A stretch of 64,000 bases of DNA from NCBI GenBank assembly GCA_000165345.1, contig CM000430.1, positions 921,970 through 985,969 on the forward strand, in the 5' to 3' direction. Numbering within the stretch: position 1 is the stretch's first letter; every line of letters begins with the position of its first letter. This document shows, in pieces, positions 24,001 to 27,000 of this stretch. A program made the position numbers.

Positions 24001-27000
24001 TTTCAGATAATTTACCAATAAATTTGGAGTAACTTGATTTTTTTATTAAATGCCTTACTACCTCACTGTTTTTCACTAAAACTTCCTTCTTCTCAACATC
24101 AATTGTTACTCCTTTCTTCAAGCTTCCTTTATCAGTAATCAAATCAATATTGAGCTTTTTTATACCTTTATTACGAAGATTATCTATTATTTCCTTGATA
24201 AATCTTTCAGCATTCTTCATGTATTCAGCCCTCCTTTTATTACCTTCAGAAGCTATATGAAGTTTATCATCCCTTAATTTCTGGAGTTTAGCTTTGCTAT
24301 TTTTTAAATTATCTCTTGCTTTAACTACTTCCTTCTTTAAAATTTCTCTTAGAGCTTTTTCCCCTCTGGTAATTAACTCAATCCTATTAATTTTGAGAAT
24401 ATCCTTTAAAAATTCTCCCTTTTGTTTGATATGCAGGCTTTTTCTTATTGTTTTTTCATTTTTGATTTTAATTTCGCGGATATGAAGCTGTCTTGCTTCT
24501 TCAAGAAGCCTATTCCTTCTGTTTATTAAGTTCTTTGGGCTGTTTTGGCCCCTATATGCATTTCTTTTTGAGAAAAATAACGGGTTATGAGCAACTCTCC
24601 TAAGTCTTCTCTTTCTAACTTCAGGCTTTCTAGATTTCCAAGATTCATCAACATCTTTCAATTTGATGATAGAAGTTGGCATCATTGATTCAACCTTATT
24701 AGTAGCTTTTTCTTTCTCTTTTCTAATATTTCCGAGAAAAGAGCTCATAGAATTTTCATTTGGGGGAGTATGTCTAGATATTATACTCCCCCTTCGTGAA
24801 AATATTGGTTATTTAGTTTTCTTGGAAGCATTTTCAAGTCCATTCTATTTGGAGACTTTGGTGGAGAATTTTGATTTTGAGCTGAGCCAAAATGAATATC
24901 AGTCTTCTTATGTGAATGACGCTGTACCATATGGAAATTCAAAACTTTAACCTTTTTTTTATTTCTCACTTTACCTAAAAGTCTAGATAAGTGTATCTTC
25001 AAAATAGTGATTTGGTACATCAAACCAATATACCTTCTAATTTTAATCTTTTTAACTAAGTCATTTAAATCATTACCAATATTAGCCAGCTCCTTCACAC
25101 AACTAAGTCGATTTATATCATCTTTAACTTTAATTTTTTCCACCTTTTCTGGATCATAATTATGTATATGCTTAAATGCGGAATTCTCTTGTCTTCTTAT
25201 TGGTACTACTAACTTCAACTTCTCCATTTTATTATCAAACAAAAAATACCACCTTCATATATTCCTAATAAATTCTTTAACCCCTCTATTAATTAAATAT
25301 CTTTTATTTATCCCTTATCTTAATTTACACACCCAATCTTCTATTTCATGCATTATATGCACCAATGTCATTTAAAAACCTACTATGCACTCATTAATTT
25401 GGCGCCCAACCAGATGGCGCCATTGTTGCACTTGTAATATTATTACTGTTGAGAGGTACCGAGGGTAAAAAAGAACTATATATGTATTTTTCTGAACAAG
25501 AACAAGACTGAAAGAGATTCTGCTGAATCTTTGCTCAATTTGGAAGAGCTTTTATCAGTTTTTTGTTCTTAACCAACTTTACGTGTTTTGTCTTTACAGC
25601 GTATTTAACAGCCGAAAATATATAGAGAGCAAAATAAAAAAAATTAATATGAGCTGGTGTGATCCATCTCATACAATTATTAGTTTGGAATTCGCATATG
25701 GCTACTTAAAGTTTATAATTCTATACTTTTTATCTTTGGTGTTATGGGGTCTCTATAGGCATCACCTTCATCTTAAGGTAGAGGCTGAGATTCCCTCATC
25801 TACATCAGAAAAAGAAGCTCTGATTGGATTCAGAGACAGCATTATTGGAATTTCACTGAAATATATATATTCTGTCTTAATTTTACTGTCACAAATCTTT
25901 TTGTGCATTGTAGTTTGGAATGTTGTTTGTGCAACTTCATCTGAAGTCCAGCCTTATTGGACCACTAGAGCAAAAACATATATTATATTCTATATGTCAG
26001 GATTGTCGATGTGCCTAATACTTTACTTTTTGGAGCCTTTCTTTGAGACATTCTTTTATTTAAGAGAGACTTTGGACAAGTGTGCTTATGTAAAATCTAA
26101 AAAAAGACATGGTTTTACTCAAACTCTCAGAAGCACTCTCAATAAAGCCTTGCAGAGAGAAGCTTCGAATGTTCAACTTGAATCTAATGATTTAATTCTA
26201 CCTCTGTTAAAAGTGCAAAAGAGAGCAGATAAGACTAGATTCATCTGCCATAACCAAGTTACATATACATTTTTAGAATCTGAATCAGGTTTTGTTTGTT
26301 GTGATCAAAGTAATCTAAATGAGCTTGTAGGGAAAGAAGGACTCCTTAATAATGGTCTAAATTCTGAAGAAATTAGTAGATTGTCAAATATTATTGGGAA
26401 AAATACTATAGATCTTGAAATTCCAGGAATATCTCAAGCATTTGCTAAGGAACTACTCCACCCTATTAATATTCTCAGATTAGGTTCTCTTTGGCAAGGA
26501 ATTTTTTTGAGATTCTATATCTGGGCAGTTCTTTGGGCAATAATGATTATTTTTACTACTTTTAAAACTCTTAAAGTGATTATATCTAACCAAGAAAACA
26601 TTAAAAAGGCACTTGAAAATTATATTGGACGTCCCATCTCAGTCTTGAGAAACGGAAAAAAGGTCAGAATACCCTCCCATGATCTTGTTCCTGGCGATTT
26701 AATATTTTTGTCGCAAGACTTAACTGCTCCTTGTGACATTTATGTGGTTTCAGGATGTGTTGTAGTCAATGAATCTTTTATCACTGGTGAGTCAAACCCT
26801 ATATTAAAGGTACAGATCGATAGAAACTCATTTTCTAATATTACCAGTACTCAACCAGGTAATAAATCCTCGAGCATGACAAACTACGAACTGAAAAATC
26901 GAACATGTTCTACTTTGGATTCTATTAACTTGGATAAATTGGAAATTAACTCAAAAGATGAATGCAACCCTATTTCTCATGATTCTAAGGTTTTACATGA

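Follow-up and report, generated by a model that had tools for sequence, protein, structure and literature searches.

Proposed frameshift junction between two adjacent Cryptosporidium parvum genes

The analysed window is a 64-kb stretch (64,000 nucleotides, nt) of chromosome 2 of Cryptosporidium parvum, AT-rich and compact, in which two neighbouring open reading frames (ORFs), designated here ORF1 and ORF2, are annotated as separate hypothetical proteins. All features of their junction lie on the minus strand, and positions are those of the window. Comparison of this locus across the genus points to a programmed -1 ribosomal frameshift, which is the best-supported explanation and probably joins ORF1 to ORF2. 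The frame offset between the ORFs, the conservation of a U-run, a spacer and a hairpin at the junction, and a switch of the coding signature from one frame to the other were observed directly.

ORF1 (24781..25227, frame 0) codes for 148 amino acids (aa; MEKLK...NNQYFHEGGV), its coordinates including the UAA stop codon at 24783-24781, and is an exact match to C. parvum EAK88621/CPATCC_000477 (148 aa). The frame is open from 25242 (TTG) and the AUG at 25227, placed in the strong context AAAAUGG, is the likely start, which makes the start at 25237 given in the original prediction slightly off. ORF2 (21938..24748, stop codon included) codes for 936 aa from its first AUG at 24748, a start with a weak context (U at -3), and exactly matches EAK88620/CPATCC_000478 (936 aa). 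The ORFs are separated by a gap of 32 nt, with ORF2 in the -1 frame relative to ORF1. The final stop codon of the -1 frame, UAA, was located at 24809..24811; this frame opens at 24808, two codons ahead of a Phe codon of ORF1, and both frames are open over 24808-24784. The two ORFs, the gap, both stop codons, a run of five G (G5) and a perfect hairpin of 10 base pairs (bp) were all found where the original prediction had placed them, and its doubt about the indexing of the UAA upstream of the downstream frame, open from about 24808, proved needless. The proposed fusion by a single base was also reproduced, as a query with one G added gave an ORF of about 1,100 aa and matched proteins spanning both ORFs.

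Conservation of the split across species

A homopolymer sequencing error and a strain-specific pseudogenising indel had been put forward as explanations of the offset, and neither agreed with the genomes compared. Both proteins were identical in four C. parvum assemblies, six C. hominis assemblies, among them the Sanger assembly of TU502, carried G5 in the junction DNA, and the junction was identical in at least ten independent assemblies based on different technologies. The -1 offset was common to nine species with DNA, namely C. parvum, C. hominis, C. meleagridis, chipmunk genotype I, C. ubiquitum, the species of SRR18693150/52, C. canis, C. felis and C. bovis. In addition, C. tyzzeri is annotated with two genes and a protein from ENA (P0018) ends with ...FTQGGVF, a 0-frame tail of the same type. 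Both ORF1 and ORF2 were under purifying selection. Errors of assembly or of homopolymer length, or decay into a pseudogene, thus have nothing in their favour but the presence of the homopolymer, and they are refuted by the at least ten independent assemblies, the nine species and the purifying selection on both ORFs; the probability left to them is negligible.

Comparison with other isolates and species, which the original prediction had named as a check, showed the frame offset and the split ORFs in nine species and continuous ORFs in C. muris and the species represented by SRR31860986. C. muris contains a single intron-less ORF of 850 aa, and the C. andersoni orthologue is also annotated as one 850-aa protein. 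The C. muris junction reads PFRSRSRSVSTTTP, the length from Phe to Thr-Pro being equal to that in the -1 frame of C. parvum (FSRRGSIISRHTP), and from the Phe codon onward the C. muris sequence FRSRSRSVSTTTP is collinear with this -1 frame. The corresponding C. parvum linker, F-SRRGSIISRHTPPNENS (24749..24802), which would be translated only after a shift, is collinear both with the C. muris segment and with the continuous ORF of the SRR31860986 species. In the latter, an ORF of 1,013 aa is continuous, with G7 where the others have AG5, i.e., one more G. A neighbour-joining tree built on the conserved C-terminal region, with C. muris as the outgroup, placed the SRR31860986 species as sister to C. 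canis (84.5% bootstrap), nested among the split species. The most economical history would comprise one split ancestral to the intestinal clade, its long retention and one secondary re-fusion. Taken jointly with programmed -1 frameshifting, descent of the two annotated C. parvum genes from one ancestral gene appears rather likely on this comparison.

The U-run as the proposed slip site

The proposed slip site U_UUU (24799..24802) consists of the 0-frame Phe codon (24801-24799) and the overlapping -1-frame Phe codon (24802-24800), and it was invariant in 11/11 species aligned or inspected. Only the 13 nt of CCAAUAUUUUCAC (24808-24796) are open in both frames throughout the split species, and U_UUU is the sole slippery element among them. 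In C. hominis, C. meleagridis and C. bovis, as in C. parvum, the -1 frame opens just two codons ahead of the Phe codon.

The C. felis sequence was decisive for the position of the slip. Its frame 0 reads CAG UCU UUU GCC UAA with the G-run next, and its -1 frame reads GUC UUU UGC CUA AGG GGG AGU..., corresponding to VFCLRGSVSSRNAPPNELSMSS. The UAA precedes the G-run and therefore a C. felis ribosome in frame 0 never gets to the G-run, which rules out G5 as the slip site. The original prediction had ranked programmed frameshifting as its least likely option, whereas this option agrees best with the evidence; the description of the slippery site as non-canonical holds for the G-run (A_GGG_GGA), but the site itself could not be retained. 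Within the frameshift reading as a whole, which we hold to be the likelier course of events, the U-run would act as the slip site and the G-run would form the 5' arm of a stimulatory hairpin, which is the usual geometry of frameshift signals.

The frame could also be restored in RNA, with polymerase slippage or editing adding one nucleotide at G5 or at the U-run (U4) in some transcripts. The DNA of the re-fused species, carrying exactly one extra G, would fit such a mechanism, and in some bacterial elements slippage of the polymerase can be favoured by a hairpin beside the homopolymer. However, cellular polymerases are known to slip at A/T runs of 7-9 or more, and both U4 and G5 fall far short of this length. 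Furthermore, insertion of a G could not rescue the frame of C. felis, with its UAA ahead of the G-run, and the hairpin lies downstream of the U-run and would still be untranscribed with the polymerase on the U-run. Restoration of the frame at the RNA level was thus judged improbable.

Switch of the coding signature at the UUU codon

The ratio of nonsynonymous to synonymous differences (pN/pS) was calculated pairwise in windows of 10 codons. Upstream of the site, the lowest values were obtained for frame 0 (0.20-0.54 in the windows from -120 to -60 vs. 0.71-1.12 in the other frames), and from UUU on for frame -1 (0.35-0.62 in the windows starting at 0 to +60 vs. 0.70-2.8). The UUU codon marked the switch of the coding signature between frames 0 and -1, and the minimum of frame -1 took in codons located 5' of the ORF2 AUG. 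Between UUU and this AUG, the -1 frame was free of stop codons in all nine split species, whereas stops were present in the +1 frame of 9/9 and in the 0 frame of 8/9; the sole length change in this interval was one of 3 nt in C. bovis. The 17 codons 5' of the ORF2 AUG behaved as -1-frame coding sequence, the number of sites being small. Among the interspecies substitutions between UUU and the G-run, two of three were synonymous in frame -1 (UCA/UCG, CGA/CGG) and all three changed the amino acid in frame 0. The 0-frame tails past the site were not conserved, the residues before the stop being V, VFL, VLI, VFS, VF or VLLQEILPQMKIL.

The same interval bears on ribosome bypassing of the T4 gene 60 type, in which peptidyl-tRNA-Gly would take off at GGA 24789-24787 in the hairpin and land on GGA 24733-24731 in ORF2. 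C. parvum does possess a take-off-like codon in the 5' arm of the hairpin, with a stop at a distance of two codons and, 53 nt downstream, a matching GGA in frame. However, the gap showed coding-type conservation in frame -1 and is translated in the continuous ORFs of the SRR31860986 species and C. muris, and the arrangement is missing from C. felis, in which the stop lies ahead of GGA. Bypassing was accordingly regarded as hardly credible.

An unannotated spliceosomal intron joining the frames is what the deposited models of chipmunk genotype I (L003 2501-5784) and C. canis (L006 2501-5835) assume. These GenBank models exceed the length needed for their proteins by 47 nt and 41 nt, respectively, implying introns of these lengths. 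In C. parvum, a 65-nt GT...AG segment (AA/GTCTCC...CGAAG/G) would restore the frame, and the AG directly ahead of the G-run is conserved. Against such an intron, no frame-restoring GT-AG pair was common to the eight split species tested, and the best candidate, present in 6/8 of them, would remove the best-conserved portion of ORF1. The GT of the 65-nt candidate is missing from C. ubiquitum, C. canis and C. felis, and the interior of the putative intron shows conservation as frame-0 coding sequence and lies within the continuous ORF of the SRR31860986 species. The C. canis model departs from the conserved frame some 200 nt too soon, and the acceptor AG of the chipmunk genotype I model is absent from other species. 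An intron was considered very improbable, and those of the two models look like annotation patches.

Other spliced forms were rejected as well. The 65-nt and 242-nt candidate introns were not conserved and their interiors were coding. A 13-nt GU...AG segment in the hairpin (24786-24774) is too short for an intron and of the wrong length (13 mod 3 = 1, 3n+2 being needed), and its GU and AG belong to conserved codons for Ser and Arg. Unconventional splicing of the IRE1/XBP1 type, in which removal of 3n+2 nt would restore the frame, disagreed with the collinearity of the split and fused proteins, from which no residues are missing, and apicomplexans are not known to possess IRE1.

A conserved hairpin 6 nt downstream of the U-run

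The U-run is followed by the 6-nt spacer CACGAA (24793..24798) and a stem-loop, the proposed stimulator (24762..24792), with the 5' arm GGGGGAGUAU at 24792-24783, the loop at 24782-24772 and the 3' arm AUACUCCCCC at 24771-24762. The G5 run (24792-24788) is a part of the 5' arm. The spacer was exactly 6 nt long in 9/9 split species with DNA, 7 nt in the re-fused species and 6 nt in C. muris; it lies within the range of about 5-9 nt of -1 frameshift cassettes. The inverted repeat (GGGGGAGTAT / ATACTCCCCC) is perfect over 10 bp with an 11-nt loop, and it was the sole perfect 10-bp hairpin with at least six G-C pairs in the window, in comparison with a mean of 0.01 in composition-preserving shuffles. 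Folding of 49 nt at the junction gave z = -4.4, and five species had z values between about -4.2 and -4.7. Stems of 10-13 bp were found in 9/9 split species and the folding energy ranged from -16 to -23 kcal/mol across species.

The consensus structure obtained with RNAalifold had an energy of -19.5 kcal/mol, and 10/10 pairs of the upper stem were kept in the 8/8 sequences aligned. Changes in the upper stem were only one-sided (U-A to U-G, A-U to G-U), all of them compatible with G-U pairing. Third codon positions of frame -1 were variable at 0/6 sites in the stem vs. 9/12 outside it (one-sided Fisher p ~0.005, calculated on few sites and related sequences), and therefore the hairpin is selected as RNA and not just via the encoded peptide. 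The rare codons GGG and CCC were fixed in the stem. The downstream RNA structure is thus stable and under selection.

A possible lower helix, pairing UGAAAAU (24752..24758) with AUUUUCA (24803-24797), was predicted in the C. parvum fold and was partly conserved. True compensatory double changes were confined to this doubtful helix, in which one A-U to G-C double change, in C. canis and the SRR31860986 species, could be GC drift. The lower helix contains the slip site and would be melted with the ribosome on it. A search for pseudoknots revealed no pairing between the loop and downstream sequence consistent across species, and no match to Rfam was obtained at the hairpin.

A second inverted repeat (CUCUUUUCU / AGAAAAGAG), perfect over 9 bp with a 10-nt loop, was noticed at 24716-24743, directly 3' of the ORF2 AUG. 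It spans the codons for SSFLGNIRKEK, is present in the minimum-free-energy fold and is apparently conserved in the C. parvum group and chipmunk genotype I, not in C. canis. A separate observation concerns C. muris (L017 3391-3440), in which the layout recurs, with CCU UUU AGA, a spacer of 6 nt and a less stable 9-bp hairpin (-13.2 kcal/mol, z = -1.8). Slippage by -1 at CCU_UUU_AG would there hit UAG at once and yield an N-terminal fragment only, as in dnaX, an arrangement that could be due to chance.

Proposed frameshift and possible separate translation of ORF2

In the proposed mechanism, ribosomes would start at AUG 25227 and read ORF1. During decoding of the Phe codon UUU (24801-24799), the GC-rich 10-bp stem-loop, 6 nt downstream, would be positioned at the mRNA entrance, and in a fraction of ribosomes tRNA-Phe would slip one base back to the overlapping UUU (24802-24800). 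If UUU occupies the A site, the distance from the first nucleotide of the codon in the P site to the stem would amount to 13 nt, which is within the range of classical signals such as HIV-1 and dnaX. The shifted ribosomes would read the -1 frame via SRRGSIISRHTPPNENS into ORF2 and produce a protein of about 1,096 aa, whereas the unshifted ones would stop six codons on and release the 148-aa helical N-terminal protein, the two products sharing their first 143 residues. Slippage at U_UUU predicts the peptide LNNQYFSR, slippage at the G-run LNNQYFHEGGSIISR, and an unshifted C-terminus LNNQYFHEGGV; HTPPNENSMSSFLGNIR would be expected from translation of the ORF2 frame 5' of the ORF2 AUG. The ribosomal shift itself, with its exact tRNA event and its efficiency, and the functions of the two products are what we infer.

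Several observations weigh against this mechanism. No canonical X_XXY_YYZ heptamer was found in the 0-frame overlap, which contains U_UUU only. The codon before UUU is UAU, AGU, CAU, UCU or AAU (the one after it being CAC, CGC, GCC or GUA) and cannot re-pair in the -1 frame, so that re-pairing would be limited to a single tRNA (here tRNA-Phe), as at G_GUU_UUU or CGA_AAG sites. Much of the residue conservation in the -1 frame (RGSI, NTPP) sits in the hairpin arms and could be accounted for by RNA constraint alone, and the small, phylogenetically related sample behind the codon-position statistics belongs here too. All intestinal species, the split ones among them, share an invariant ORF2 AUG that C. 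muris lacks, which would fit a real start codon. Finally, about 201 polycistronic mRNAs have been described in C. parvum, the internal ORFs of which may be translated independently (PMC11761812).

The last two points would also support fission of the gene into two cistrons by an ancestral frameshift mutation in the intestinal clade, with ORF2 translated from its own AUG at 24748. The template would be an internal monocistronic transcript, or else a dicistronic mRNA with ORF2 as its second cistron, and the hairpin would have another role, such as RNA processing, stability or initiation control. All accurate annotations give two genes, and the polycistronic C. parvum transcripts coexist with internal monocistronic ones (PMC11761812). 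However, a start at this AUG does not explain why the -1 frame is stop-free back to the U-run in 9/9 species when the other two frames contain stops, or why the frame -1 coding signature begins at UUU and not at AUG. The doubly open overlap always brackets U_UUU, no split species deviates from the 6-nt spacer, and one lineage tolerated re-fusion into a single ORF. The context of the AUG is also poor, with a pyrimidine at -3 in 8/9 split species. Fission was considered possible, though rather doubtful. Independent translation of ORF2 could occur instead of, or besides, frameshifting, and the findings argue against it as the sole explanation.

An extension of the frameshift model to the whole genus can be offered more tentatively, as a conjecture that is probably not correct in full. 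U_UUU, the 6-nt spacer and the hairpin would be ancestral to the genus and would always have given the same two products, a short helical N-terminal protein and the full-length one, with only the default product flipped in the course of evolution. In gastric species such as C. muris, standard decoding would yield the full-length protein and slippage a truncated, dnaX-like product, whereas in intestinal species standard decoding would yield the short product and slippage the long one, in the manner of gag-pol. The SRR31860986 lineage would have flipped back.

Gene products, gene models and other features of the locus

No domain was found in either gene product with Pfam, no relative of the protein with PDB, and no retroelement signature in this gene. 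All 11 matches of the profile search were Cryptosporidium proteins (one of them without a source name), and judging by these matches the protein family is known only from Cryptosporidium. The profile search with the C-terminal part was empty although orthologues exist, which reflects a word-index limit and is not evidence. ORF1 counterparts in other species have about 144-183 aa. The AlphaFold2 model of ORF1 predicted a single long helix (residues 26-105), which cannot support a fold search, and the C-terminal structure model was unusable (pLDDT 37). The main texts of the literature contained no mention of cgd2_4210, cgd2_4220 or cgd2_4230.

A short upstream ORF (AUG AAG GUG GUA UUU UUU GUU UGA, 25235-25258) was present just 5' of the ORF1 AUG, out of frame with ORF1. 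Within the linker, in the -1 frame (24785-24796), a conserved basophilic kinase-type motif R-G-S was recognized, in the form RRGS in C. parvum, C. hominis, C. canis and C. bovis and as QRGS or LRGS in the remaining split species; C. muris has RSRSRS at this position. The motif may be a phosphorylation site confined to the frameshift product. A weak SNORD113-like C/D-box match inside ORF2 (24614-24692; 22.9 bits vs. a gathering score of 36, E = 0.033) is probably due to chance. The neighbouring gene in the window codes for a P-type ATPase.

Besides the models of chipmunk genotype I and C. canis, deviations were noticed in those of C. felis (L008 4951-7665), which is truncated, its start lying about 530 nt too far downstream, and of C. 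bovis (L016 4552-7626), which starts late, at a second AUG. On comparison of the orthologues, at least these four deposited models appear wrong. The fused model of C. ryanae (P0014) is devoid of the conserved F-x-RRGS...TPP motif and may be a fifth.

Relation to known frameshift systems and significance

The arrangement resembles HIV-1 gag-pol and E. coli dnaX in having the second ORF in the -1 frame overlapping the end of the first one, a U-rich slip site, and a GC-rich stem-loop, here of about 10-13 bp and not a pseudoknot; the output would likewise consist of a short and a long protein with a common N-terminus. The 6-nt spacer is shared with dnaX, and a weaker lower helix that may contain the slip site is shared with HIV-1. 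In contrast to both, the proposed signal belongs to a cellular gene of an apicomplexan that is not a retroelement, and the site is NNU_UUU_N with no full heptamer. Restriction of re-pairing to the tRNA of the second codon (UUU or AAG) has parallels in G_GUU_UUU of cardioviruses and arteriviruses and in CGA_AAG of B. subtilis cdd and IS1222, and at G_GUU_UUU the A-site UUU likewise slips to the overlapping UUU. Those sites are stimulated by bound proteins (2A; nsp1beta with PCBP) or a Shine-Dalgarno-like element, whereas an adjacent hairpin would act here; the downstream sequence ACUCCCCC is C-rich, but is the 3' arm of the stem.

In the mammalian cellular genes PEG10, PNMA/Ma3 and RTL1, two ORFs are linked by a phylogenetically conserved -1 frameshift, as is proposed here. 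Those genes go back to retrotransposon gag-pol and have canonical heptamers with pseudoknots, whereas the gene described here lacks a retroelement signature. Conserved -1 frameshifting in non-retroelement cellular genes of eukaryotes is very rare and often disputed, and full-text searches for programmed frameshifting of nuclear genes in Cryptosporidium and other apicomplexans returned no report. The site comes with natural controls, C. muris and one re-fused lineage being unsplit and nine species split.

The polycistronic transcripts of C. parvum (Xiao et al. 2025, PMC11761812) come from the same organism and also comprise adjacent same-strand ORFs with a very short gap and in different frames. 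In that work, the frame difference of adjacent ORFs was taken as evidence against mis-annotation and frameshifting was not considered. The ORFs described here differ in that they appear to have arisen as the two parts of a single ancestral ORF, with a frameshift-type cassette linking them. An alternative reading is thereby offered for some of the reported polycistronic transcripts, and if the cassette is ancestral to the genus, some 'polycistronic' C. parvum pairs could be recoded single genes.

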